DNA of 64,000 nt from a phage. Of this stretch, positions 9,777-64,000 are shown in pieces. The position numbers and the translations under genes were made by a program. The stretch is from NCBI GenBank assembly GCA_033648345.1, contig GCA_033648345.1_4121.1; one strand, 5' to 3'. The notes below the pieces were generated by a model. The model made no database searches. It was not told the DNA's origin and saw only the letters and a program-made list of their open reading frames with translations. Each line of letters begins with the position of its first letter. Positions within the stretch are counted from its first letter, which is position 1.

Positions 9777-9818
9777 GTTTGTCTCCAAAATAAATCGGGT
9801 ATATCTTTATTTACCTTG

Positions 9819-9846
9819 TTGACAAACGCAAAGAATGTGATATAAT
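9819..9846 (+). promoter_or_regulatory. Sigma70-type promoter for the ClpA-like gene
   Basis: TTGACA (9819-9824), 16-nt spacer ending TGa, TATAAT (9841-9846). Confidence 0.6.
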
Positions 9847-22178: not shown

Positions 22179-22226
22179 TTTTGGACTCCATATAATTCGT
22201 TCATTCATTTGATTTATTTATGATAT

Positions 22227-22250
22227 AAAAAAGACGTTCCGAAGAACGCC
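22227..22250 (-). terminator. Intrinsic terminator (minus strand) with UUCG tetraloop
   Basis: Minus-strand RNA GGCGUUC-UUCG-GAACGUC followed by U6. Confidence 0.5.
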
Positions 22251-22258
22251 TTAATGTG

Positions 22259-25200
22259 TTATGAACCAATGTTAATGTTACTCTTAGCCAAGGAATTGAC
22301 TATCTGTACGTTATCAACTGATGCAGTACTTAAGAAAATCTGGTCAGAACGTGAAGGGATTTCAAATAGTGAGCCAAATTTAGAGTTAGGGTTTTGAGCT
22401 ACGATAACAATAGTACTAATATGTCGTCCTAATTGGGAGTGAATGTATGTACACAAGTCAGTGTAATAGAAACTTTCACCAAAATCCCAGTTGTCAACAT
22501 TAAAATACTCGTTAGTTAGTGCTACGACATTTTGACGAATTTCATCATCACTCATTGTACTGTTAGGCAATTTGACGACTTTGAAATCTGCTTTATAATC
22601 TTCAGCAGCACTCGCACCAAATAATGGTAGATATTCTGCACTATGCCAAATAATACTGTCACTGATGACTATTTTTTGTTCAACTTCTTTAAAAATGTCT
22701 TTCAATTCAACAGATGTTGGTGGTTTAGGCATATTACCTTGTGTTCCATTCTTCAACCATACATCAACTTCAGTTTTGTATGAATTGGTTAATACATACA
22801 TGTCAATCAAGTTTGTTCTACTTGGGTCAATGCGATTATCATCTGGTGCATAATGTTTCCAGTGGAAATCAATACCAGTTCTTGCATTCGTTTTTACGGT
22901 ATATTGTGAAGTTACATCTTTATAACCATAATAATCTAACTTTTGGTTAACATCAGCATTAGTACCGATATTAACAATAGCACGATAAAACGCAAGTTCA
23001 GGAGTTGCAGCAGTTGTATCATCAGAATAGGTCAAGTTCTCAATTAATTGGTTTAAACGGTCATTATTATTACCAACAGTTTGTTCTATGAAGTAATATT
23101 TACCATCGTATTTAAAGCCAACCATAAAGCCTGAACCTTTACTATAGATACCACTCAATGTTGTTGAGCGAATAGCATTATTGCGAACAAATTCACTTCT
23201 CTTATACGCATTAGTTTCTGCAAGTGCCTGATCCATTGTATAAGCCCATGAAGAATCAAGAATAGTGAAAGTATCGCTCGGTAATGACAGTACTGATATA
23301 GTGAAATCATCGTTTTCTTGGAAAACCAATATACCACCATATTTAACTGAATCTTCACCAGTCCAATTTGGTACAATTTCTCTGAATTGATTAGGTTCTA
23401 GTGGGATTCCATTACTATCAACGTTTTCAGAGGTGATAACCACACGAGAACCATCAAGATACCCGTTTTCTTGTTGAATTGTGTCATAAATTTGGAAATC
23501 TATGTTACTTGTCAACCCAGCATTACTATTGCTTGTGGTATTTGATGATAAAATTTCAATTTTGTCACTTTGAACACTACCAGTACTAATATCAGTTATC
23601 TTTTTAGAAGAAACGAAGTAAAAACGAACTTTATCACCACCAACGAACACATATTCAACGCCATTCGCATCAAATTCCCAGGTTTCAGCAGTATATTTGA
23701 TGTTAATCATAACAAGAACTTCATTTCCATTATAAGAAATAGTATCTTCATCAGTACTGATTTCTAATGGAATCCAAGAAGTTGTTTCTTTATCATGAAT
23801 AATAACAAAATCTGTCTTTTTATCAAGCATTGCAGCGATTGCTTGCACTTCGACACTATTAAAACGTGTTCTGTATTGTAAAATGTACTCTTGTGCTTGC
23901 ATATTTGATGAAACTGAAGTACTTAGAACGTAATATCCATTATCAAGAACACTAACAATACTAGCCCACACAGTAGTTCCGGCATTTGAAAACTTAATCA
24001 ACGTACCAACTTGATAATTTCCGAATACGTTACCTGTTGCCCCCATAATACGACCATACGTATTAGTTGCGTAATTAGAATTGTATTCAGGTGTCCATTT
24101 TTGTTGAATTTCAATACCAATTGTATTCGGTGGATATGCTTGATAACGTTGGATTACAGCATTCTCACCAATCAATGGCTGAATATTATCAATTACAATA
24201 CTAGCATTTGTTTTGGTAGTTGGTAATTGTAAAGATTTATTAAATTGTGTGTTTTCTTGATACATTGAACCATCATCACTAAACACATCAGTGTTTTGAT
24301 ACTTACCAGTTGGATCATTAATATCAATGAATCGTGACTGTCCACTATATAAACGGTTAATTGCTTTAGATTTAAGAACTGTGTTACCCAAACTCAACGG
24401 AGCAATGTTATAGTCTTCGCCGTTAACAAAACGGTTTTGAGTGTAATACATTTGTGGAGCACGAGCCTTAATTTGTTCAATTGTTTCTGCACTTTGTGCA
24501 CGATCTGATTCATATTGCAATGTGAAACGAATATCCAAAGTACTGGATTCATAGCTTGATTGTGTTTTGGTTCTATAGGTGTATTTTACACTTTTGTTCT
24601 GGATTTCAGACGTTTTAATGTTGTATGTTTCACCATTACTAACACGATACCATACACGATACGTCCCACGAGGAACAACACCACTACGAGAATCAGGATA
24701 CTTAATAGTAATCTGGTCTTTATCACGAGTTGTGACAGCAAAGATTGTTTTTAGTTGACGGTTAACAGTATTGTATGCGATACTTTCCATAGATGGAACT
24801 TTGGTCCATTTAGTACGTACAATACCATCTTCGTTGATTTCCTGAACCCAAACATCAGTTTCGTTGATATTATCTACGTTGATGTCTTGGATACGGTTTT
24901 CTTCACGAATATTATATTGGTAATCTTGGTATGTCAATGTCCCTTGAACAAAATAAACGAAGAAACCAGTATTTGGTGAACTAAATCCGTTACCATCATT
25001 CTGATAAACGATATATTTTTGCTCTTGTGGTTCAGGGTGACGCTCTTCAACACCAACTGCTGTAATATCAGGGTTGACAACTTCAAATGTCATCGATTCA
25101 CCATTAACTGTAGCTGTGAATGGAAGACTTGGTGCTGACATTGGAATTGTATTCATACGATATAGCTGACGAGAAACACCATTGATATCGATACGTTTAA

Positions 25201-25720: not shown

Positions 25721-25786
25721 AATTTATTCCTTTAAATCAGTAAAGTACTAGTTCAGTACTGGGAATTATATATAGAAATATTTATC

Positions 25787-25814
25787 CAAAAAGAAAAGCA
25801 CCCCGAAGAGTGCT
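25787..25814 (-). terminator. Intrinsic terminator (minus strand) with UUCG tetraloop
   Basis: Minus-strand RNA AGCACUC-UUCG-GGGUGCU followed by UUUUCUUUUU. Confidence 0.5.
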
Positions 25815-25822
25815 TTTATAAT

Positions 25823-26218
25823 TTACAAAGATGATACAGAATAGGTAGCCATTCTGTTGTTACTTCTTGCATCAAAAACTATAGTTAATTCTTCAAGAGT
25901 ATTGAGAACAACATATTCAAGTACTATATCCATCTGATAACCGTACTCAATTCTTGATATTTGAAGTTTCTTTAAGCTTAAACGTGGGTCCAAGCTAATA
26001 ATTCTACGGGCATCTGCTTCCAAAAGGTTGATTGTATTATAACCATCCAATTCAAATAGCAAATCCCACGCAATGAACCCATAATCAGCATCAAATGCAC
26101 GTTCACCTTTTTTTGTATTGAAATGATTCATTAAATCCTGACGAACCAATTCACTGTCATACAATGTTTCAGTTCTTCCAACTACTGGTGTTGAAAAACC
26201 TTTAAAAACAATTGCCAT
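25823..26218 (-). CDS. Baseplate wedge protein, gp25 / GPW-like
   Basis: 131 aa; KGERAFDADYG...LLFE and EADARRIISLDPRL resemble the T4 gp25 family; adjacent to the spike gene. Confidence 0.55.
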   Translation of the reverse strand: MAIVFKGFSTPVVGRTETLYDSELVRQDLMNHFNTKKGERAFDADYGFIAWDLLFELDGYNTINLLEADARRIISLDPRLSLKKLQISRIEYGYQMDIVLEYVVLNTLEELTIVFDARSNNRMATYSVSSL

Positions 26219-26722: not shown

Positions 26723-26759
26723 AAAGATTTCCTCATTATTATTTATAGTACTGAAATAT

Positions 26760-29423
26760 TTATTGACATGCCTCTAATCTACGTGCCATTAATTCAGCAC
26801 GGCGTGTAGTTTGACGATACCAAGCTGAATTTCGAATTTGAGCAGCAGCTTGCTTGTAGTTACCTTTAGCCATTTCAGATAGCATTGACTTAAATTTCAT
26901 TACACCACCTTTACCCATCTGGAATACCATTTGACATAGAACTTGTTGTGCCATGTAAGGTGTTTTCATCTTATAAGAAGCGTAAATGGATTTTGCGTCA
27001 TATATAGCCTTACTACTATCACGCACCAACATATCATTGGCTTCCTGTTCGGTAATCCCACCAGAGAAGTTTTCACCACCAACAATCAAGTGACCGTAAC
27101 CAATAGTTGGGAATCCACGACTATCCAAATATCTCCAAAATTTGCCATTACGGTAATATCCTTTAGCTTGTTGATACGCCATTGTTCCTTCATATTCTTT
27201 CAATTCAGAAATAAATTGTGAATCACCCGGAACAACTTTCCAATCAATTGCAGTCTTATCAACATTACCCACATTGTATGATTCTTGTGCAGTAGGTACT
27301 GGAGTACCACCTGAACGTTGTGTTCTTCTACGACGAGGGACATGACGAGAACCACGTTGAGAATACCCAGTACCGATAGTTTTAATTTTAGTTGTTACAA
27401 CTAATTCATCACTATCAACAGAAGGTTGAACAACAGCTTTCGGTGCTGCTTGGTTCGTTGCTTGTCCTGCAATTAATGTTTTATTTCCCGCTTCAGAACC
27501 TGTACCAGTCTGGGATGCATAGAATAATCCAGGGTCAACTGAACCACTAAATCCTAGTACGTTGGCAGAGGTAACTCTTATTTCAAATTGAATAACACCA
27601 TTAGCTTTACCGATAACTTGACCTTTTTGAACAACGTCTTTATTGAGCAAATCTGATTGAATATTATAAAATACAGATTTATATCCAGACTTATGTTGAA
27701 CCAATAAAGCACCATTAGTGATAACAACTACACCGCCATCTGGAGCTACAACATCACCCTTGCACTGTATTTCCCAGCCACTTCTATCAGCTTTACCACC
27801 ACCACTAGTCGGGACACCTTTCCCCCAATAACCGTATTGGCGAATGGTTCCACTACACGGCATGAACATATGAAGACCTTCATATGTAATGCTATAACCA
27901 GTCATACCAGGATCAGAAGTCATTAAATCTTGTGTTTGAACTTGTTCTGTTTCTGTTGTATAATTTACATATTGAATTGCTTCAGTGTCCTGTACTGGAG
28001 CTAAAGTTGGAGCTACATCATTAGCAGGTTCAGGTTGAACTGGGGATTCACTATTCCCACTACCACCACCTTGACGTGGAGGTTCAACAGTACTGCCGTG
28101 ATTCTCAGCATCAACCCAAGCCGATATATCATGTATATGATCATTCAAGCCAGCAGATGGGGTGCGGAAGTTTGGTGCATTAAATTCAGCAGTACCACTA
28201 TTACCACCACTGTTAACAGTAAGAGTTTGACCACCACCACTAATAATAGCTGATGAAGAACCAATGAGATTAGCACTGGTAGCAGCAGAGATTGACGCAT
28301 TAGAACCAGCAGTTATATCAGTACTGCTACCACTTTGCATACGTAATGAAGCTGCTGTTACTAAACGTAAATCTGCTCCAGCGTTAATAACAACCTGACC
28401 ACCAACTTTAGCATCCAATGCACCAACCAAATCTAGTTTAGTGTTTGCACCAACACGAGCATTGAAGTCTGCTCCACTTTCAATATTATATGAGCGTCCA
28501 GCCACCATGTTAATATCTTGACCTGCACGAATGTTAATATTCTTATCACAGTGCATTTCAATATCACCTTCACCAGTGAATTTAATACGTGCAGTACCAT
28601 CACGGTTAATTAAAAGAACATCACCAGAGGCTTCAGATAACAACAACTGTGCACCACTACGTGTTTTAATTACAACGCCTTCATTTTTACGAGAACCAAC
28701 ACGAGTATCGTTCACTGGGTTATTGAATTGGGTATCCTGATAACCATCTGGATCTTGATCCCATGTAGGTGCTGTTAATTCTTCTTCTGTGTAACCATCA
28801 TCAATAATAAAACTGTTACCACGAGGTGAGGAAAGACCATAAACAGTACTGGTGGTCTGGCGAGTACTGCTACGGTTAGCAACACCCGCTTCCTCATCAT
28901 AAAGTAAGTTTTGTTTTTTCAGACCTGCAATAATTGGAACGTTTGCATATTTGTCTTGAGTACTGGTAGAAATTGTATTACGGTCATAATCAGTTACGGG
29001 TAATGGCATATCAGTACCAGCATAGTTGCTTATTTCAGTAGCCATCCCAGGAACCATCGTATTCATACGTTGGTCATAAACACAACCAATCCAATACGCT
29101 TGGAATGTTCTTGCTTGTGCAAATATAACAACAACAGTACATCCGACATCAGGTGGAACCGCCCAAAAACCATATCCCTTTGGATATTGACCATAAGCAT
29201 CAGCACTTGGTATCCCTGGAGTTTTGCCAGCGAATGGAGACATGTATGATGCTTCAATCCATGACTCTTTTGAATTTTTATCACTTTGTGAACCTTGAAT
29301 CCACACTTTTAGCTTACCGGATTTAGTTGGGTCACGGTTATCCATCACGGTTGCTAGTTGTGGATACGAAGGGTCAAAACGACCCAACTGTTGTTGGGCA
29401 TATTTCTTACTTGTATCTGCCAT
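26760..29423 (-). CDS. Baseplate central spike protein with beta-helix, degenerate M23-like domain and C-terminal GH24 lysozyme domain
   Basis: 887 aa; beta-helical repeat region; M23-like fold lacking HxxxD/HxH zinc ligands (VIQFEIRV); C-terminal 150 aa paralogous to the adjacent free lysozyme with conserved E/D/T. Confidence 0.7.
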   Translation of the reverse strand: MADTSKKYAQQQLGRFDPSYPQLATVMDNRDPTKSGKLKVWIQGSQSDKNSKESWIEASYMSPFAGKTPGIPSADAYGQYPKGYGFWAVPPDVGCTVVVIFAQARTFQAYWIGCVYDQRMNTMVPGMATEISNYAGTDMPLPVTDYDRNTISTSTQDKYANVPIIAGLKKQNLLYDEEAGVANRSSTRQTTSTVYGLSSPRGNSFIIDDGYTEEELTAPTWDQDPDGYQDTQFNNPVNDTRVGSRKNEGVVIKTRSGAQLLLSEASGDVLLINRDGTARIKFTGEGDIEMHCDKNINIRAGQDINMVAGRSYNIESGADFNARVGANTKLDLVGALDAKVGGQVVINAGADLRLVTAASLRMQSGSSTDITAGSNASISAATSANLIGSSSAIISGGGQTLTVNSGGNSGTAEFNAPNFRTPSAGLNDHIHDISAWVDAENHGSTVEPPRQGGGSGNSESPVQPEPANDVAPTLAPVQDTEAIQYVNYTTETEQVQTQDLMTSDPGMTGYSITYEGLHMFMPCSGTIRQYGYWGKGVPTSGGGKADRSGWEIQCKGDVVAPDGGVVVITNGALLVQHKSGYKSVFYNIQSDLLNKDVVQKGQVIGKANGVIQFEIRVTSANVLGFSGSVDPGLFYASQTGTGSEAGNKTLIAGQATNQAAPKAVVQPSVDSDELVVTTKIKTIGTGYSQRGSRHVPRRRRTQRSGGTPVPTAQESYNVGNVDKTAIDWKVVPGDSQFISELKEYEGTMAYQQAKGYYRNGKFWRYLDSRGFPTIGYGHLIVGGENFSGGITEQEANDMLVRDSSKAIYDAKSIYASYKMKTPYMAQQVLCQMVFQMGKGGVMKFKSMLSEMAKGNYKQAAAQIRNSAWYRQTTRRAELMARRLEACQ

Positions 29424-32749: not shown

Positions 32750-32794
32750 CTTTTTGATTCTCCATAAGAAGGGAACATTTGATGTATTTATACG

Positions 32795-32823
32795 TGGGAC
32801 AAAGACGTTTTTGGTGCTATAAT
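32795..32823 (+). promoter_or_regulatory. Early/middle-type promoter upstream of the gp55-like gene
   Basis: TGGGAC, 17-nt spacer ending TGC, TATAAT (32818-32823); member of a recurring family. Confidence 0.45.
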
Positions 32824-32880
32824 AACATTGATGGTACAAGGAATGTACCTATTGGATTTAAAACATGGAGAGTTGAAATA

Positions 32881-33720
32881 ATGACAAATAGGCCGAAGCG
32901 TAAAAAGTATCTTAACAATGCTGATTTACTTCGTGAGATACAAAAAAGTAAAATCTCATATTGCTGGTTACTTGATAAGTGCTACAGTATGTACGATTAT
33001 ATCGTTTTTGATGAATCCGAAATCACAGCAGAACTTTTAGATAAAGCTAAAGCAGCACGTATTAAACGTCTCAACAATGAAATGCTTGATGCAATTCGTG
33101 AAAAAGAAGGTATGAGTGCGAAGAAAGCGAAGGAATACGCAGATGAGCACAATTTAGTACTGACTGATGTACCTATCGATGAGGTGGTTATTCGTGTAAT
33201 TACCGATGAACATATCCCAGCAGATACAAGAGTTAATTTTGAACCATTCAAACATTACATTGTAGATGAAGAAGGTATTCTGTACGAAGTCGTTCGTTCT
33301 CACTGGAAAGGTGATCTTGAAGACGGAGAATTCAGTACTGTTCATGGTAAAATCACTAATGAACTAGGTAAAATGTTCATTAAACTGGCAGAGGAAATCT
33401 CACACAAATCCAACTATAGAAACTATACATATTTGGATGAAATGATGGGTGATGCCAGAATACAATTAGTTAAAAACGCACTTCTCTTTAAAGAGAGTAT
33501 TCTTTACAAAAAAGATAAACCAGCAGTACAGTTGAATCCTTTCTCTTACTATACTTCGTTCGTTAACAATAGTTTCCGTTCTATTCTTAATAGTGAGAAA
33601 AATGTTCGTAACATCCGAGACGATTTACTTGAGATGCATGGTTTTACACCATCACACACTCGTCAAATCGAAATTGAAATGAACATGATTGAAAGGAAAA
33701 ACGAAGATGGCTCTATTTGA
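32881..33720 (+). CDS. Late-transcription sigma factor, T4 gp55-like
   Basis: KYLNNADLLREI, YTYLDEMMGDARIQLVKNALLFKE and NPFSYYTSFVNNSFRSILNSEKNV match T4 gp55 blocks from memory; about 100 aa longer than T4 gp55; GGAGAG RBS. Confidence 0.7.
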   Translation: MTNRPKRKKYLNNADLLREIQKSKISYCWLLDKCYSMYDYIVFDESEITAELLDKAKAARIKRLNNEMLDAIREKEGMSAKKAKEYADEHNLVLTDVPIDEVVIRVITDEHIPADTRVNFEPFKHYIVDEEGILYEVVRSHWKGDLEDGEFSTVHGKITNELGKMFIKLAEEISHKSNYRNYTYLDEMMGDARIQLVKNALLFKESILYKKDKPAVQLNPFSYYTSFVNNSFRSILNSEKNVRNIRDDLLEMHGFTPSHTRQIEIEMNMIERKNEDGSI

Positions 33721-43720: not shown

Positions 43721-43751
43721 GAAATTTTTCAGTACTAAATAATATCATACT
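43721..43751 (+). promoter_or_regulatory. Late-promoter-like element (TAAATAATAT box)
   Basis: 31-nt block GAAATTTTTCAGTACTAAATAATATCATACT, nearly identical to the block upstream of the capsid gene. Confidence 0.45.
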
Positions 43752-45267: not shown

Positions 45268-45333
45268 CATTTTAAAAATATAAATATTTGTATGTTGAAG
45301 TACAGATATTTCAGTACTTAAAGGAGAGAACGA

Positions 45334-46472: not shown

Positions 46473-46505
46473 CAAATTTTTCAGTTCTATAAATAATATC
46501 ATACT
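46473..46505 (+). promoter_or_regulatory. Late promoter with exact T4-type TATAAATA box
   Basis: TATAAATA at 46488-46495, 45 nt upstream of the capsid ATG, inside a block shared with 43721-43751. Confidence 0.5.
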
Positions 46506-46539: not shown

Positions 46540-47715
46540 ATGTCACAACTACTAAATGAATCCAAATGGGTAGCAGTTAAAGAGAAACTAGTTGAAGGTC
46601 TACAAGGTACTCGTAAGTCCGTAATGGAAACCGTACTTGATAACCATCGTAAACTAATGCTAAACGAATCTGCTACTTCTGGTGCAACCACCGCTGGTAA
46701 CATCGCTACTCTAAACAAAGTGATTCTACCAATTATGCGTCGTGTTATGCCAACCGTAATCGCTAACGAAATCATCGGTGTTCAGCCAATGACTGGCCCA
46801 GTTGGTCAGATCCACACCCTACGTGTTCAATATGCTGACAACGCTCCTGGTGTTATCGCTGGTGAAGAAATGCTTTCTCCATACAAAATCGCTAAGTCTT
46901 ATACTGGTGACCTAAACGCAGACAACAGCAACCCACAAGCTGCTCCTACTAGCCAACTAGAAGGTACTATGGGTCGTCGCGTTAACATCCGTATTCTACG
47001 TGAAACTGTTGAAGCGAAATCTCGTCGTCTATCTGCACGTTGGACTGTTGAATCTGCACAAGATGCACAATCCCAACATGGTATCGACGTTGAAGCTGAA
47101 CTAATGGCTGCAATCGCTCAAGAAGTTACCGTTGAAATCGACCAAGAGCTACTAAGCCGTCTACGTGCACTACCTGGTGCTGCTGCTGTAACTTATGACC
47201 AATCTAAAGTTACTGGTGTTGCGACCTTCGTTGGTGACGAGCACGCTGCTCTAGCTACCCTAATCAACCGTCAAGCGAACGAAGTTGCTCGTCGTACCAA
47301 ACGTGGTGCTGCGAACTGGGCTGTTGTTTCTCCAACCGCTCTAACCATTCTACAGTCTGCAACTACTTCTAGTTTTGCACGTACTACTGAAGGTACTTTC
47401 GAAGCTCCAACTAACGTTAAATTTGTTGGTACTCTAAACAGCACCATGCGTATCTTCGTTGATACCTATGCAAGTGATGTTGAAGATATCCTAATTGGTT
47501 ACAAAGGTAACGCTGAAACTGATGCTGGTGTGTTCTATTGCCCATACATCCCACTAATGGCTTCCGGTACTGTAATGGACCCTAACACTGGAGAACTCGT
47601 TACAACTTTCTTAACCAGATACGGGTATGTTCAGTTGACCGATAGCACCAGTTCACTAGGTAACGCTGCTGACTACTACAGTAAAATCGCTATCAAAAAC
47701 GTTACTTTCATGTAA
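46540..47715 (+). CDS. Major capsid protein (T4 gp23 family)
   Basis: IMRRVMPTVIANEIIGVQPMTGPVGQ, EAKSRRLSARWTVESAQD and GYKGNAETDAGVFYCPYIPL match gp23 blocks from memory; 391 aa. Confidence 0.85.
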   Translation: MSQLLNESKWVAVKEKLVEGLQGTRKSVMETVLDNHRKLMLNESATSGATTAGNIATLNKVILPIMRRVMPTVIANEIIGVQPMTGPVGQIHTLRVQYADNAPGVIAGEEMLSPYKIAKSYTGDLNADNSNPQAAPTSQLEGTMGRRVNIRILRETVEAKSRRLSARWTVESAQDAQSQHGIDVEAELMAAIAQEVTVEIDQELLSRLRALPGAAAVTYDQSKVTGVATFVGDEHAALATLINRQANEVARRTKRGAANWAVVSPTALTILQSATTSSFARTTEGTFEAPTNVKFVGTLNSTMRIFVDTYASDVEDILIGYKGNAETDAGVFYCPYIPLMASGTVMDPNTGELVTTFLTRYGYVQLTDSTSSLGNAADYYSKIAIKNVTFM

Positions 47716-47738
47716 TAATAAAGAATTTAAATATACTA

Positions 47739-47768
47739 GGGACTCTTCGGAGTCCCTTTTCTTTTTTC
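47739..47768 (+). terminator. Intrinsic terminator after the capsid gene (UUCG tetraloop)
   Basis: GGGACUC-UUCG-GAGUCCC followed by a U-rich run. Confidence 0.65.
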
Positions 47769-47779
47769 AGAAAAAAAGC

Positions 47780-47808
47780 TTGACAAGTAGATTTTAATTA
47801 TATATAAT
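47780..47808 (+). promoter_or_regulatory. Consensus sigma70 promoter
   Basis: TTGACA (47780-47785), 17-nt spacer, TATAAT (47803-47808). Confidence 0.6.
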
Positions 47809-47843
47809 TACCACATACCAAAAATCACAAAGAGACAAATAAA

Positions 47844-48950
47844 ATGCCAAAAGTAAGTATCGACAAAGAAAAATTCATTGAAGAGATGAACAACAAGTAT
47901 GGAGCATATGGTGAATTTGATTTCAGCACTTTAGTATTCAAAGCCAGTAAGACAACAGTTAAATGTAATAAATGCGGAAAAGAAAATACTAAACCTGCAC
48001 TACGTCACATTTCATGTACATGTTCTTCATGTTATTCAAACATGTCACAGCGTTCGAACAACGAAAAATTTATCAGCACGGTAGAAACTAAATTTGGAAA
48101 AGATAAATTCAAATTTGATAAACTAAATTACATTAACGCTATAACAAAAGTAACCATACTCTGCACAGACGAAGAACATAACGATTACTTTGAAATTACA
48201 CCAAACAAATTTCTTACTGGTAAGGGATGTCCTATATGTAATAAAAATGAAGCATACAGTACTGAAGAATTCGTAGAAAAAGTAAAAGAAAATTATGGTG
48301 ATTCATTAGATTTAACTAACACAGTATATGTAAATCAAAAAACTAAAGTAACTGTGTATTGTAAAGCGGGTAACCATGAATGGACAGTTGATCCGAAAAC
48401 TTTACTTGTTGGTAAGACTGGTTGTGGTACATGCTCCGGTAAAGGTGGTCGCAGTACTGAACGTTTCATTGAACTGGTATCACCTATCCATAACCATAAG
48501 TATGATTATAGTTTGGTTGAATATACTATAAGCGAGAATTATGTTGATATTGTATGTCCAACTCATGGTGTTTTCTCCCAACAACCAAAAGCACATATGG
48601 CTGGTAAAGGATGCCCATCATGTGGTGAATATGGATATCAGCCATCAAAACCTGGATATTTCTATGTTCAAAAACTAACTAATAAAGATAAGACAGTGTA
48701 CAAGTATGGAATCACTGGTGATATGAAACGCCGTGTAAATGAGCAAAGTCGTCATTCTGGTTTTGAACACACAGTACTGATAGAACGTTACTTTGAAGAT
48801 GGAAATCAACCATTACTGTTGGAAAAGTTCATAAAGAAATACATTGAAAGTGGTGTTGTAAGTACTGAAGAGTTGCCATCAGGATTTACTGAAACTTTTG
48901 ATGCTAAGTATCTTGAAAGTGTTTTAGAAATTGTAAATACTTTTAAGTAA
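47844..48950 (+). CDS. Protein with tandem zinc-ribbon repeats plus C-terminal T5orf172 (GIY-YIG superfamily) domain
   Basis: Three to four ~60-aa repeats each ending GKGCPxC / GCGTC with paired Cys; C-terminal GYFYVQK...YKYGITGDMKRRVNE block matches the T5orf172 pattern. Confidence 0.6.
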   Translation: MPKVSIDKEKFIEEMNNKYGAYGEFDFSTLVFKASKTTVKCNKCGKENTKPALRHISCTCSSCYSNMSQRSNNEKFISTVETKFGKDKFKFDKLNYINAITKVTILCTDEEHNDYFEITPNKFLTGKGCPICNKNEAYSTEEFVEKVKENYGDSLDLTNTVYVNQKTKVTVYCKAGNHEWTVDPKTLLVGKTGCGTCSGKGGRSTERFIELVSPIHNHKYDYSLVEYTISENYVDIVCPTHGVFSQQPKAHMAGKGCPSCGEYGYQPSKPGYFYVQKLTNKDKTVYKYGITGDMKRRVNEQSRHSGFEHTVLIERYFEDGNQPLLLEKFIKKYIESGVVSTEELPSGFTETFDAKYLESVLEIVNTFK

Positions 48951-48973
48951 ACAACCATAAGGAGTTGACACGG

Positions 48974-49324
48974 ATGTTAACTGTATACATTTTTAAGAAA
49001 GAAGAGTACTTAAAGAGTCAGTACTCAAAAATTGAGATTAACGTTCCATACGGGACTTTAGTTGGTTATGATGAAGCTAGTGAAACTTTGTATTATAATG
49101 ATGATAGACTGGACTATAGTATTGATTCATTTATTGAAGACATACTTAATAGTAACACTGAAGATATGTTGTATGAAGAATACTTAGATAAGTACAAAGA
49201 ACGTATGTCAAAGTTACATGCTGATGCTCCAGTACTGAACATTTCAAAAACTCCTTCTGAATTCGAGCCACAAAACCCATTCCAACGCCTAATTGATGCT
49301 GGGGTAAATTTCCGAATTACTTGA
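48974..49324 (+). CDS. Hypothetical protein
   Basis: Track start TTG 48965; ATG 48974 with AAGGAG RBS; 116 aa. Confidence 0.45.
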   Translation: MLTVYIFKKEEYLKSQYSKIEINVPYGTLVGYDEASETLYYNDDRLDYSIDSFIEDILNSNTEDMLYEEYLDKYKERMSKLHADAPVLNISKTPSEFEPQNPFQRLIDAGVNFRIT

Positions 49325-49363
49325 TTAATAAATATCTTCATATTACTGATGGAGATATTTTCT

Positions 49364-49672
49364 ATGTCACAGATATGTTATGTTATAGTAAATGATGCAT
49401 GGCCTGATTATGTTAAGATAGGATTTACCAGTAAATCTGAAATGACAGAACGTTTAAGGACATATCAAACTGCTACACCTTTTAGAGATTTTGTGGTATA
49501 CCATGAAGTACACTTTGAAGATGCACGTTTAGCAGAGAAAGAAATTCACAAAAGACTAAAACAAATGAACGCAGTAAGGCAACCTAACACCGAGTGGTTC
49601 AAGATGCCTAAGAAGATAGCAGCGAACATCGTTGATTCTGTTCTTGACGATATGGAAAACGACTTGCTATAG
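49364..49672 (+). CDS. T5orf172 (GIY-YIG superfamily) domain protein
   Basis: CYVIVNDAWPDYVKIGFTS...ERLRTYQTATPF...EWFK pattern; ATG 49364 with GGAGA RBS preferred over 49349. Confidence 0.6.
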   Translation: MSQICYVIVNDAWPDYVKIGFTSKSEMTERLRTYQTATPFRDFVVYHEVHFEDARLAEKEIHKRLKQMNAVRQPNTEWFKMPKKIAANIVDSVLDDMENDLL

Positions 49673-49713
49673 TAATAAATATAGTATATATTAATCATTA
49701 AAGGGATTTATAC

Positions 49714-51426
49714 ATGAGCATAAGTTTTAATAACCCACTGGATACTATGACTAGTACTGGTGCTAATGGATCTTTAGAACTAATAGTGCTTGGTGGTACA
49801 CCAACTAATCCAAGACCTATTCGTTTTAATTCATCTTCTGTCATTTTACCAGTACAGGCATTGCCAGCAGGTGAGCAAGGTGCTATGGTATTTGATAGAA
49901 ATGAGTTGGTGTTAAAATACCACAACGGGACAAGTTGGATTGCAGTATACGATACTGATACAATTCTTGAACCAATCCGTATTTCACTCGATGAAGTGAA
50001 CCGTAAACTGAATTTAAAAGTTGAAACAGTAACATATAGTAGTAGTGCTGTTCCAAGTGCGAGCATTAGTGGTACGAATTTAAATATCGTATTCCCTACT
50101 CCATCAAGTAGCGGTAGTGGCCCAACAGGTCTTTACACTTCAATGAAGCCTGGTGCAATTACCCAGTACTCATTGACTTCTGGACAAACTGTTGCTAGTA
50201 TTCGTGAACAGATGTCTGGAGTAACTAATGGTCAAAGTGGTCGTAATGGTACACAAGGTTCTCCGTGGAAAACTTCTGATGGTTGGTGTTTTGCTGATGG
50301 AATGTGGTGGCAATGGGTTGGTGAAAATGGTACAATCACTAAACAAGTTCCAAATCTTAACCAAGAAGCATACTTGAAAGGCATTACCACATCAGGCGTA
50401 ACTAAAACTGATAGTGTGATTGCAAGTAGTGCATCAATTAGTGGTACTGCGATATCAATTGCTCAACTTCCACCGCACTCATTTAGTTTCAGTGGAACTA
50501 CTGGTGCTGCTGGTCGTCATGGTCATAGCCAAGCACTAAAAGGTATGGACAGAAGTGGTCTTAATGCGTTAACATCCAGTAACGACAACGGAATCCCAAC
50601 TGTAATTAATAACATTAACGAAGCACCTGATCACGTGCATAGTTTCAGTGGTTCTACGAATACTGTTGGTAGTGGTCAAGCACACAGCCACGGAATTAGC
50701 AATATTGACGTACCACACTTTAATGTGGCATACTTATATAACATTGCAGAGTCTAACGTTGCATTGAGTGAAAAAGTTGCAAACACCCGTTATGTACTGA
50801 AAACTGGTGATACAATGTCTGGTTCATTGACTATTGCTAACAGTGCAACAATTCGTTCGAATGATACTTCATTAGTACTTTACTTCCGTAACGCTACTAA
50901 TGGTGAACGTGCAGCAATTTATCATAATTCATCTAACAATACATTACGTTTGAGAAGTAATGGTGGTTCTGAAGTTTCTATCAACTCTTCAGGTGTACTA
51001 ACTTCCCCATCGTTAGTTGTTAGTTCTAACTCTGCAACAGTTTCTGGTAAAAACATTGTACGTTCAGTTAACGGTACTGCGGCAGATGCAAGTGGTAATG
51101 TAACTATATCTACCACAACAACTTCTGCGTCATTGACACAAAATGGCTGGCATAAAGATAACAATACTGGTATGATTACCCAGTGGGGATACTTAACTGT
51201 TGGTGACGACTCTTATGTTACTGTAAACTTACCAGTTGCATATCCTAATGCTTGTTTAAATCTACAAGTAACTGGTAGAGTATCCAGAGCACCAGGTAAC
51301 CGTACTTCATTTGCTGGTCATGGTAACATTTTAAGTAACTCACAAATTGCTGTTGGTGCAGCTAACCCTGGTAGTGACGGTGACCACAATGGGCTAGGAG
51401 TGTACTGGACAACAATTGGTTATTAA
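49714..51426 (+). CDS. Tail fiber protein with His-rich HxH motifs
   Basis: 570 aa, Ser/Thr/Gly-rich; HGHSQ and HVHSFSGSTNTVGSGQAHSHGISN resemble metal-binding HxH motifs of T4-type fiber tips; AAAGGGA RBS. Confidence 0.6.
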   Translation: MSISFNNPLDTMTSTGANGSLELIVLGGTPTNPRPIRFNSSSVILPVQALPAGEQGAMVFDRNELVLKYHNGTSWIAVYDTDTILEPIRISLDEVNRKLNLKVETVTYSSSAVPSASISGTNLNIVFPTPSSSGSGPTGLYTSMKPGAITQYSLTSGQTVASIREQMSGVTNGQSGRNGTQGSPWKTSDGWCFADGMWWQWVGENGTITKQVPNLNQEAYLKGITTSGVTKTDSVIASSASISGTAISIAQLPPHSFSFSGTTGAAGRHGHSQALKGMDRSGLNALTSSNDNGIPTVINNINEAPDHVHSFSGSTNTVGSGQAHSHGISNIDVPHFNVAYLYNIAESNVALSEKVANTRYVLKTGDTMSGSLTIANSATIRSNDTSLVLYFRNATNGERAAIYHNSSNNTLRLRSNGGSEVSINSSGVLTSPSLVVSSNSATVSGKNIVRSVNGTAADASGNVTISTTTTSASLTQNGWHKDNNTGMITQWGYLTVGDDSYVTVNLPVAYPNACLNLQVTGRVSRAPGNRTSFAGHGNILSNSQIAVGAANPGSDGDHNGLGVYWTTIGY

Positions 51427-51433
51427 AAAATAT

Positions 51434-51462
51434 TGAGACAACTTTTAAAGTAGTGATACAAT
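51434..51462 (+). promoter_or_regulatory. Promoter of the early family
   Basis: TGAGAC, 17-nt spacer ending TGA, TACAAT; upstream context AAAATATTGAGACAA mirrors 55375-55390. Confidence 0.4.
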
Positions 51463-55476: not shown

Positions 55477-56208
55477 ATGGATCTACGCAACGTACTACGT
55501 GACCTAGTTAACACTACCAACGGCATCGACTTTTCTTGTATCGCAGTTAGCAGTGAAGACCGTGGTGATGGACAGCGTGTTTACATGGAAGCATACACCG
55601 ATGACCGCACCCTAGTTATGCGTGCTCACACTAAAGAAGACGTACCAGAAGTTCAAGGTCGTTTTGGTCTTGGTAACCTAGGTCTTCTACAGGGTCTAAT
55701 GTCTCTAAAAACTTATAGTACTGAAGGAACTACTATCACTTCTAATTTGAAAGATGGTGCAGTTAAGAGCCTAGCATTCAAAGCAGAAGATGCAAGCACT
55801 ACTTTCATGGTTCAACCAGAAAAACTAATTCCAGCCCAGCCTCGTTTCCATGAACAACCATATGACGTACAGGTTACACCTAGTGCAGCTAAAGTTCAGG
55901 AACTAAAAAGTTTCTCTGGTGTGTTTAAATCTTTCAGTTCTCTAGTAACTCCATACACTGAAGGTGATACTCTTTACTTCCACGTTGGTGAGAAGAATAA
56001 AAGTAACCACGTTGGTGCACTAGCATTCTCTAAAACTGAAGGTGAACTAGGTCTTGGTTTTGGTTATAACATTGACCGTGTTCTACAAGCTCTATCCCGC
56101 GTTTCTAACGCAGAATCTGTTACCCTTGGTATTACCAAAACTGGTATGCTAAACGTAACTCTAGACACTGGTATTGCGGTATACAAGATTTACGTAACAG
56201 GTTGCTAA
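55477..56208 (+). CDS. Hypothetical protein; weak resemblance to a sliding clamp (gp45-like), unverified
   Basis: 243 aa with GGAGA RBS; N-terminal LVNTTNGI segment loosely recalls the T4 gp45 N-terminus; followed by hairpin GGGGAAC-ATGGA-GTTCCCC. Confidence 0.5.
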   Translation: MDLRNVLRDLVNTTNGIDFSCIAVSSEDRGDGQRVYMEAYTDDRTLVMRAHTKEDVPEVQGRFGLGNLGLLQGLMSLKTYSTEGTTITSNLKDGAVKSLAFKAEDASTTFMVQPEKLIPAQPRFHEQPYDVQVTPSAAKVQELKSFSGVFKSFSSLVTPYTEGDTLYFHVGEKNKSNHVGALAFSKTEGELGLGFGYNIDRVLQALSRVSNAESVTLGITKTGMLNVTLDTGIAVYKIYVTGC

Positions 56209-56785: not shown

Positions 56786-57503
56786 AAAAAGGTTTATTCC
56801 TTTCTGGATGGTCCCCGCTCATTGGGGACTTTCTGGTAAAGCGAAAGAGATTGCGAAAGCATACTACTATAACGATGATTATGAAGCTGATATGTTAGTT
56901 GCAGAACTTACATATCTAACACCATATGAAGTTGATGTAGCACAGTTGGATATCAAAAAGAAATACAATGTATTAGAAACTCTTGATTATCTAATAGCAC
57001 AGGCAGATGTACAATTGAAGTATTCCAAGATTACCCGTGATGAGTATAATGTAAAATTACTTGATGCTAAATTAAGTACTGGTGCAATTACTCAAAAAGA
57101 GTATGATATGGAAGTAATCGAACTAATGCCTGATGGTGATGACAAACGTCTTAAAGCTATCGAGTTTGCATATCGTTATGAAGAGATTACACAACAAGAG
57201 TATTCAAAGGAAATCTTTACTTTACGTAAAGAACCTTGGATTGATTTGGATGTAGTACTTAATCCAGAAACAAATGAAGTTGAATTTGTTTTTGATTATA
57301 ATGAATACTTTTGGAAAAAGTTAAAAGCGGAAGGTCATCCAGGTAATGACGAAGAAGAAATTATTGACAACTTCGTTAGAGACATGGGGCGTAAACTAGC
57401 TACGGATGATTTCAGTGATGATTATGACGTAAAGCTAGTGAATGCGAACGAAGGGTTAGAGAATCTACCTGGTTTACCTGAAGGGTTCCGTTCATACAAA
57501 TAA
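56778..57503 (+). CDS. Hypothetical protein
   Basis: ATG overlapping the GroES stop; 241 aa; followed by a terminator. Confidence 0.5.
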   Translation: MAKKRFIPFWMVPAHWGLSGKAKEIAKAYYYNDDYEADMLVAELTYLTPYEVDVAQLDIKKKYNVLETLDYLIAQADVQLKYSKITRDEYNVKLLDAKLSTGAITQKEYDMEVIELMPDGDDKRLKAIEFAYRYEEITQQEYSKEIFTLRKEPWIDLDVVLNPETNEVEFVFDYNEYFWKKLKAEGHPGNDEEEIIDNFVRDMGRKLATDDFSDDYDVKLVNANEGLENLPGLPEGFRSYK

Positions 57504-57504
57504 A

Positions 57505-57537
57505 AAAAGGAGAGCAAAAGCTCTCCTTTTCTTTTAT
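57505..57537. terminator. Bidirectional intrinsic terminator
   Basis: GGAGAGC-AAAA-GCTCTCC (57509-57526) with flanking A and T runs. Confidence 0.65.
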
Positions 57538-57547
57538 CTTTAATTTA

Positions 57548-58237
57548 TTAAACCATCGCTGGGATGAATTTGAATAGTTTGATACCGAAGTCACCAGCAG
57601 CATCAGCAGCTTGGGAACGTAGAACAACTTCAGTAACACCATCTTTAGCGAGTAGTGGAACTGCGGTTAGGTCATCAATTAGTAGACGGCCTTCTTCGAT
57701 CTCAGTACTTGGAACGCCTTGGAAAGATTGAATATCTTTATCAAATACGTTAGCACGTTCAACGAGGAAAGTAACTACTGAAGCACTAGCGATATCAACA
57801 GACCCAACACTTAGGATACCGTCAGCAGCGTTGGTAAAACCAGTAACTGCAAATGGCTCAGCGTCGTTGCCAGCGATTTCGGAAGTAGCGATGATAACTG
57901 CACGTTGTTGAACAACATCAACGATACGTTTAACGTTAGTTTGTGCAGCGTAAGCAGCGTTATAATCAGCTTCTAGAGTTGCTGCTTCAAATGGAGTACC
58001 ATCGACACGGATGATACCTTTTTCGTTTAGATATGCAACGATTTCATCAGCTACGTCAGTGTTTAGGAAACGTTGTAGACCAGCGAAAGAACCAACTGCA
58101 CCAGTAACACGCACGTTAACATTACCAATTTTACTAATTGCGATAGATGCTAGGGCGTTTTTACCACAGAAGTAACCTAGAATTTTATCAAAGGAATAAC
58201 CATTGATACGTTCAAAAGAAGTATTAGTATTAGACAT
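57548..58237 (-). CDS. Putative virion structural protein (paralog A)
   Basis: 229 aa, Ala/Val/Thr/Gly-rich; shares QQRAV...TS...ER.NVFDK blocks with the adjacent gene; AGGGGGA RBS. Confidence 0.55.
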   Translation of the reverse strand: MSNTNTSFERINGYSFDKILGYFCGKNALASIAISKIGNVNVRVTGAVGSFAGLQRFLNTDVADEIVAYLNEKGIIRVDGTPFEAATLEADYNAAYAAQTNVKRIVDVVQQRAVIIATSEIAGNDAEPFAVTGFTNAADGILSVGSVDIASASVVTFLVERANVFDKDIQSFQGVPSTEIEEGRLLIDDLTAVPLLAKDGVTEVVLRSQAADAAGDFGIKLFKFIPAMV

Positions 58238-58252: not shown

Positions 58253-58852
58253 TTATAGTTGTACTGGTAGAGCAGCACGAACTTTAATTGCAACAGCGTC
58301 AGCGGCAGCAGCATCACCAACACCATCAGTACCTAGAGCAACATAAGATTTGGTACGGAAGAATTTAGCTTGTGCAATAGCTTTAGCTAGTTCAACAGTT
58401 GGATCAACTGGAACAGAGTAAGCAGCACCTGGGCGAACTTCTTGTTTGTCAAATACGTCTTGACGTTCACAGATGAAGGTTAGAGCAACAGAACCAGCAC
58501 CACCTGTAACATCAGCACCACTAGTACCAAACGCGATTACGTTACCACCAACGGTTTTAAAGTCAGCAGGGATAACAACAGCGGTGTCTAGAGCTAGTAC
58601 GGAAGTAGTAACTAGTACTGCACGTTGTTGTAGTAGTTGGGTAATCATGAATTGGTTGTATTGAGCATTGCTGATTGCAGTTTGTAGTGCTTCATCTTGA
58701 ATTTCGGAACCGTCAGAAGTAACAGCGGTAGTACCAACTTCAACATCTGCTGGTAGATCAACAACGATGGTTACGAAACCATTGTTACCACCCCAGTATT
58801 CACGAGCAGTAGCAGACATACCATAGTTACGGTTAAAAGAATTAAGACTCAT
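58253..58852 (-). CDS. Putative virion structural protein (paralog B)
   Basis: 199 aa paralog of the downstream gene; AAGGAG RBS; late-promoter boxes upstream. Confidence 0.55.
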   Translation of the reverse strand: MSLNSFNRNYGMSATAREYWGGNNGFVTIVVDLPADVEVGTTAVTSDGSEIQDEALQTAISNAQYNQFMITQLLQQRAVLVTTSVLALDTAVVIPADFKTVGGNVIAFGTSGADVTGGAGSVALTFICERQDVFDKQEVRPGAAYSVPVDPTVELAKAIAQAKFFRTKSYVALGTDGVGDAAAADAVAIKVRAALPVQL

Positions 58853-58894
58853 AAAAATCTCCTTGTCAAATTTTGTGCAGGAACACCCTGCTTA

Positions 58895-58972
58895 ATATTA
58901 TTTATCAAAAAATATAAACCACATTTAAATTTAAGGCAATATTCCCTGATCTCTATGATATTATTTATCAAA
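58895..58972 (-). promoter_or_regulatory. Two tandem late-promoter-like boxes (minus-strand TTTGATAAATAATAT)
   Basis: Identical 15-mers at 58895-58909 and 58958-58972 (plus coordinates), 63 bp apart; proximal copy ~43 nt upstream of the ATG at 58852. Confidence 0.4.
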
Positions 58973-58974
58973 TC

Positions 58975-64000
<5,026 letters not shown>

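Follow-up and report, generated by a model that had tools for sequence, protein, structure and literature searches.

Why does a jumbo coliphage carry two copies of the same A/T-rich box, side by side, in front of one gene for a virion protein, and are both of them likely to be in use? The window analysed here is a 64,000-nt stretch of an Asteriusvirus-type (121Q/RaK2-type) jumbo coliphage that is 99.8% identical to phages Turkey3, BF17 and fEgEco12. Nine Escherichia jumbo phages, among which are these three (350-385 kb), show 99.3-99.9% identity in this region, and 121Q, PBECO4, G17 and phAPEC6 of the genus Asteriusvirus are about 82% identical to it. About 52 genes were placed on the window by way of the fEgEco12 annotation, and the boxes sit in a divergent intergenic region of about 211 nt (Table 1). 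A first-pass annotation had read them as tandem late promoters that could boost expression of an abundant virion protein. We propose, from the sequence and its relatives, that the two boxes are probably tandem T4-type late promoters facing a single two-gene virion operon.

Table 1. Features of the two-box locus, in coordinates of the 64,000-nt window.
Feature	Position	Strand	Sequence or product	Basis
Proximal late box	58895..58909	-	TTTGATAAATAATAT; core 58899-58905	exact repeat and conservation
Predicted start of the proximal promoter	58893	-	A, six nt past the core	
Distal late box	58954..58972	-	TTTGATAAATAATATCATA; core 58962-58968	exact repeat and conservation
Predicted start of the distal promoter	58956	-	A; leader of 104 nt	
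Stem-loop	58877..58891	-	GCAGG-GTGTT-CCTGC, 5 bp	covariation
Shine-Dalgarno sequence	58859..58864	-	AAGGAG, in conserved leader ACAAAATTTGACAAGGAGATTTTTATG	sequence
First gene	58253..58852	-	199 aa, virion structural protein, PHROG 9326	
Second gene	57548..58237	-	229 aa, paralogue of the first	
Intrinsic-terminator-like hairpin	57502..57533		bidirectional, closing the two-gene unit, before a convergent upstream gene	
Sigma70-type promoter of the divergent RNase H gene	58975..59003	+		sequence, conserved in relatives
RNase H-like 5'-3' exonuclease gene (rnh)	59064-60050	+		

The repeat itself is as it had been described. Two exact copies of ATATTATTTATCAAA lie on the plus strand at 58895-58909 and 58958-58972, 63 nt from start to start, and their minus-strand reading is TTTGATAAATAATAT. 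The 64 kb contain no further exact copy, and with up to two mismatches allowed the sole further match is the box of the major capsid gene (46485-46499, opposite orientation, two mismatches). This capsid-gene box (46489-46503) also has an exact 15-mer, ATAAATAATATCATA, in common with the distal box. The first-pass annotation had placed the proximal copy about 43 nt from its gene, at the same distance as for the capsid gene, and this is about right: 42 nt lie between the end of the 15-mer and the ATG at 58852, and 40 nt between the end of the capsid-gene core ATAAATAATAT (46489-46499) and the ATG at 46540. The pair that it described is present, but the 15-mer is not the conserved or functional unit. 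That unit is the 7-nt ATAAATA (minus strand) with an A six bases downstream; identity over all 15 nt is specific to this lineage, and the two copies in relatives share just 7-12 nt.

One explanation for such a pair is chance, or a recent local duplication in AT-rich DNA, with a second copy that has no function. The lineage-specific identity past the core would fit this, and by a composition estimate an extra ATAAATA in one AT-rich spacer of 212 nt is not very improbable. The pair is the only 15-mer direct repeat within 100 nt in the whole window, however, and only 3 of 200 shuffles preserving local composition gave any 15-mer repeat this close. The distribution of the core also argues against a chance origin, as ATAAATA is almost absent from coding DNA and nearly confined to the DNA upstream of genes. 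It occurs 20 times on the two strands of the window and 16 of these copies are wholly intergenic, against 4.1% of non-coding DNA, whereas other 7-mers of the same composition have 16-36 occurrences with 0-13 intergenic. All but one of the 20 copies lie 17-109 nt upstream of a co-oriented start codon, and the genes behind them are mostly structural (baseplate, portal-region, capsid, tail-fibre and other). When the 20 sites are aligned, a T-rich tract is seen upstream and W-T downstream of the box, with A at +6 in 15 of them; a conserved -35 is absent and the sequence just downstream is AT-rich, as in T4 late promoters. The distal box is atypical in that its core ends 109 nt from the ATG, against 17-64 nt at the other 18 sites, and upstream it is flanked by the G/C-containing -35 zone that belongs to the divergent promoter, in place of the usual T-rich tract. 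A small position-weight matrix built from 15 other sites scored the distal box below 9 bits and the proximal box at 14.5; its flank was over-fitted, and we dropped these scores as evidence.

The window holds a second ATAAATA pair, at 26740-26763 on the minus strand, 17 nt apart and before the baseplate hub/lysozyme gene (26722-26234); in that pair a mere 17 nt separates the proximal copy from the ATG, so that probably a single copy is in use. Several late boxes directly follow the terminator hairpin and T-run of the preceding gene (22222-22260; 25786-25830, minus strand), an example of such a junction being GGCGTTCTTCGGAACGTC-TTTTTT-ATATC-ATAAATA. The T-rich upstream consensus may thus derive in part from terminators. 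These junctions bear on another possibility, that ATAAATA is an RNA-level signal for processing or translation, or the site of a DNA-binding protein, and not a promoter. The evidence for a promoter is all positional and comparative, and T4 DsbA, a protein that binds A/T-rich DNA at sites overlapping late promoters, offers a precedent for a binding site. However, where a box directly follows a terminator a new transcript must start there, and an RNA element would have no transcript to carry it; a box-to-start-codon distance of 17-64 nt is also too variable for a translation signal. Given that ATAAATA agrees with the T4 late promoter at seven of eight bases and that the window encodes a member of the cognate sigma family, we regard a role other than that of a promoter as very unlikely.

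Among the 6-mers of the window, the palindrome AGTACT shows the strongest over-representation: it has 136 sites where base composition predicts about 22, and CAGTAC/GTACTG are enriched too. In coding DNA about 62% of the AGTACT sites fall in frame 0 (AGT-ACT, Ser-Thr), the other frames being enriched as well. The sequence TTTCAGTAC is likewise enriched (89 matches with at most one mismatch, 25 in shuffles), and it directly adjoins several late boxes. Examples of this enrichment lie at 26748-26756 on the minus strand and at 43727-43735 and 45309-45317 on the plus strand.

The sigma factor in question is the protein encoded at 32881-33720, which matches PHROG 12791 (E 1.4e-152) and PHROG 234 (E 1.5e-16). 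T4 gp55 is a member of PHROG 234 (E 2.9e-69) and cross-matches PHROG 12791, and a pairwise BLASTP of the two proteins gives E 2e-4 with 25% identity over 121 aa; the protein from the window has 279-312 aa, against 185 aa in T4. A search for it in Pfam and NCBIfam gave no match. The annotated start of this gene at 32782 is probably too far upstream, the PHROG alignment beginning at residue 36; the DNA from there to the ATG at 32881 (32782-32880) holds a promoter-like TGGGAC-17-TGcTATAAT, and the late box of the neighbouring gene lies there on the opposite strand. A gene annotated as the sliding clamp in fEgEco12 lies at 55477-56208; its only PHROG match is to a family of unknown function, and no match to it was found in Pfam, NCBIfam or PDB sequences. 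The identity of the boxes as late boxes, as the first-pass annotation had it, is supported in silico by their placement before co-oriented genes, by their match to the motif of phages CBB and GAP32 and by the encoded gp55-family sigma.

Comparison with relatives bears on whether both copies matter. Across 22 of 22 distinct upstream sequences neither the two ATAAATA cores nor the A at +6 of each shows any variation, and the core start-to-start distance is 63-68 nt throughout. These sequences cover Asteriusvirus, Alcyoneusvirus, Eneladusvirus and Mimasvirus (at least four named genera) and several unclassified lineages; 7t3, Hallingskeid and XaC1 are unclassified, EJP2 is divergent, and eight sequences come from uncultured viral contigs, which were gathered by protein-profile search for the orthologous gene. 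The cultured sources are Asteriusvirus lineages, RaK2, 7t3, fENko-Kae01, Serratia BF, fHe-Yen9-04, GAP32, CBB, Hallingskeid, EJP2 and XaC1. In optimal pairwise alignments, identity in the spacer between the cores averages 0.66 and falls as low as 0.49, against 1.00 in the cores and 0.84 in the proximal leader. Both copies are thus under selection, and a spacer identity of 49-66% also disfavours a recent recombinational spread of the intergenic region. With cores invariant across 22 distinct sequences and a spacer far less conserved, a functionless second copy is extremely improbable.

More distant homologues show more varied arrangements. Contigs with homologues of 51% and 46% identity have two to three boxes and two boxes 55 nt apart, respectively, and one at 39% identity (L027) has two boxes 37 nt apart with rnh not adjacent. 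Vibrio phage 2.275.O, an outgroup with a homologue of 40% identity, has one ATAAATA box and the hairpin, and neither a divergent rnh gene nor a distal box; a contig at 36% identity (L168) has one box, of the variant CTAAATA, and the hairpin. A loose scan of IMG/VR for ATAAATA-N50-64-ATAAATAANNNNAAG returned at least 120 loci with a homologue of the gene in none of the matches listed, and these were set aside as chance AT-rich matches. In Escherichia phage Turkey5 (934-1164) an extra 231-nt ORF lies between the rnh promoter and the rnh gene, of which remnants alone are found in JNE01; the two late boxes are unaffected by it.

The main alternative concerns the distal box alone. The promoter of rnh has a -35-like TGGGAA (58975-58980), a 17-nt spacer and an extended -10 TGcTATAAT (58995-59003), its -10 (ATGTGCTATAAT) and -35-like elements are conserved in relatives, and the distal late core is 6 nt from the -35-like element in the window and 6-10 nt from it in relatives. 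One explanation is therefore that the proximal box drives the operon by itself and that the distal box is kept for the rnh promoter, either as an A/T-rich upstream aid akin to an UP element, or by occlusion, whereby late-sigma polymerase on the distal box would block the -35/UP zone and shut rnh off late. The distal core, at about -43 to -49 of the rnh promoter, is indeed in the UP-element zone. UP elements, however, are A/T-rich tracts between -40 and -60 of a sigma70 promoter that are degenerate and usually carry A-tracts in the non-template strand, whereas the distal core is invariant at 7 of 7 positions in the 22 sequences, is in late orientation and has a +6 A; an invariant 7-mer with a +6 A is the signature of the other late boxes. 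Co-oriented sigma70-type promoters in the window (those of the clamp gene and g355) have A-tracts upstream and no TATTTAT, and the exact 15-mer common to the distal box and the capsid-gene late box also points away from a dedicated rnh element. A link to rnh would fit the outlying 109 nt to the ATG and the joint lack of the rnh gene and the distal box in the Vibrio outgroup, but the 39%-identity homologue retains two boxes though rnh is not adjacent. It would also fit the recurrence of a late box 3-6 nt from a divergent sigma70-type -35 at two other places in the window: the same back-to-back layout separates a baseplate gene from the late-sigma gene (32785-32823; TGGGAC-17-TGcTATAAT), and a variant of it lies before a Clp-like ATPase gene (9808-9846; TTGACA-17-TATAAT). 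Promoter and rnh-related roles of the distal box are compatible with each other, and we consider a distal box that serves rnh in place of the operon an unlikely, if the strongest, alternative.

Perhaps boxes of the distal type form a hard-wired middle-to-late switch that would shut off replication genes as the late sigma accumulates, at 58962-59003 (rnh), 32785-32823 (late sigma) and 9808-9846. A late complex and the neighbouring sigma70 complex could not bind together, so the layout would itself act as the switch. If this were so, the late-sigma gene would be under negative autoregulation at 32785-32823, and the 63-68 nt to the proximal box would represent the closest packing of two late complexes. 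We view such a switch as doubtful, and its probability as low.

The reading that we favour is that of two late promoters in tandem. Host RNA polymerase with the phage gp55-family late sigma would recognize each box as a -10-like ATAAATA without a -35 and would initiate at the conserved A six bases past each core (~58893 and ~58956), giving mRNA leaders of 41 nt and 104 nt. The shorter transcript would open with the conserved stem-loop at +3, both would end at the terminator that closes the unit, and two promoters would raise the late output of proteins needed in many copies. In the activated late complex of T4 the clamp is at the upstream end and gp33 cross-links DNA at -39 and -36/-35, and 63-68 nt may thus be about the smallest spacing that accommodates two clamp-activated late complexes side by side. 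Such closest packing could account for a spacing that stays constant despite the free sequence of the spacer.

The proximal leader carries a further conserved element. A stem-loop starts five nt past the proximal core, and its stem is paired in 100% of cells in 14 of 14 aligned sequences, with a loop that varies freely in sequence and length. The RaK2 stem has two compensatory pairs (GTAAG/CTTAC), and in the Vibrio phage outgroup the stem is GCCAG/CTGGC. If transcription starts at the +6 A (58893), the stem would begin at +3 of the mRNA, which is the geometry of a 5'-terminal stabilising hairpin, and the stem-loop is predicted to be probably a guard against 5'-end-dependent decay. The 5' stem-loop of the ompA leader protects its mRNA against RNase E. 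Like stabilisers of the ompA type, the element here has a short covarying stem within 2-3 nt of the predicted 5' end and a free loop; it differs in that the stem is just 5-6 bp and its 5' placement rests on the predicted start. Downstream of it, ACAAAATTTGACAAGGAGATTTTTATG is second in conservation to the box cores alone within the intergenic region. A consensus scan flags 58877-58891 as a plus-strand intrinsic terminator, a reading that we rejected: no plus-strand gene ends upstream, the tail TTAATATTAT is not a T-run, and on the minus strand the position is inside the g364 leader. In the long leader RNAalifold returned the 5-bp hairpin alone and a spacer without conserved structure. Taken singly, the spacers have a slight folding advantage over shuffles (mean z -1.3, 13 of 14 negative), a difference too weak to use, and Rfam gave nothing relevant over 58700-59200.

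The boxes precede two genes for virion structural proteins. Their products are paralogues, as the first-pass annotation had suggested: both belong to PHROG 9326 (E ~1e-81) and BLASTP aligns them at 35% identity over 83 aa. Orthologues of the first gene are fEgEco12 g364, phAPEC6 gp210 (80% identical at the protein level), CBB_271 and RaK2 ORF107, and those of the second are fEgEco12 g363 and phAPEC6 gp211. The second gene, which begins 15 nt past the end of the first, lacks a box of its own and is thus probably co-transcribed with it; a terminator is annotated in phage G17 at the place equivalent to that which closes the unit here. In purified phAPEC6 virions, peptide coverage was 69.8% for gp210 and 69.9% for gp211, with 74.9% for the major capsid protein (PMC7247149), and CBB_270, CBB_271 and the fENko-Kae01 orthologues have been detected by MS as well. 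Coverage so close to that of the major capsid protein supports the earlier suggestion of an abundant virion product. The phAPEC6 capsid has a decoration layer with a copy number equal to that of the capsid protein and without an assigned gene (PMC7247149); paralogues of the g364/g363 type are candidates for it. An AlphaFold model of the first protein (pTM 0.76) had no informative fold match.

We note that gene content at 47731-51448 differs from that of fEgEco12. An extra 368-aa ORF (47844-48950) follows the capsid gene, with a terminator upstream and a strong sigma70-like promoter of its own (TTGACA-17-TATAAT, 47780-47808), and the tail-fibre region is altered, with the fEgEco12 tail-fibre assembly gene absent.

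Our search of the literature on RaK2-like phages found in-silico predictions only and no 5'-end mapping, RNA-seq or reporter data, and the fEgEco12, phAPEC6 and PA5oct papers hold no late-promoter or start-site data on the locus. The present analysis provides a concrete, testable map of predicted promoters for an operon whose virion proteins are among the most abundantly represented in the 121Q/RaK2 group. For the engineering of these phages, the box pair, the +6 A and the 5' hairpin offer candidate signals of strong late expression, and the close packing of late boxes against divergent sigma70-type promoters offers a simple route to studying middle-to-late switching.

How, then, does the locus compare with known systems? 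In a late promoter of T4 the TATA box precedes the start by about one helical turn, an AT-rich segment follows the box and there is no -35 (PMC2988020). The T4 promoters (TATAAATA), at which gp55-RNA polymerase acts with gp33 and the gp45 clamp as activators, likewise have a single A/T box at -10. Further points of likeness are the AT-rich stretch past the box, a predicted start about 6 nt downstream, the location of boxes before structural genes on either strand and a phage-encoded sigma of the gp55 family. The difference in the octamer is that its first T is not conserved here, G being found in both copies.

The closest precedent is from within the clade. ATAAATA was predicted as the late promoter ('promoter 3') of CBB and GAP32 (Buttimer et al. 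2017; PMC5259590), and in CBB this is described as ATAAATA or CTAAATA with A/T-rich sequence after it, placed before structural genes (PMC5259590). Both boxes agree with this description, and the proximal box has its orthologue in the published Table S7, as predicted late promoter Porf_271, ATAAATAACATTAA (PMC5259590). Motif, clade and class of downstream gene are the same as those of 'promoter 3'. The CBB list gives one site per gene, taken from 100 nt upstream, and the distal box, which in CBB is 120 nt upstream, is unlisted. The tandem layout, the conservation of the boxes and their spacing across the clade, the +6 A and the 5' hairpin are absent from the description of CBB and GAP32.

Tandem promoters are themselves familiar before highly expressed genes, for example P1 and P2 of the E. 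coli rrn operons and the paired late promoters before T4 gene e. In these, as here, two promoters in the same direction and no more than about 100 bp apart feed one unit in high demand. Unlike in those examples, both boxes at this locus are apparently of the same temporal class, so that differential regulation would not be expected, and the distance between the promoters is unusually constant (63-68 nt). The pair thus looks like a real but ordinary tandem late-promoter arrangement; it adds a new and better-defined example to a class of promoters that had been predicted for the clade before, and it leaves the general picture of that class unchanged.
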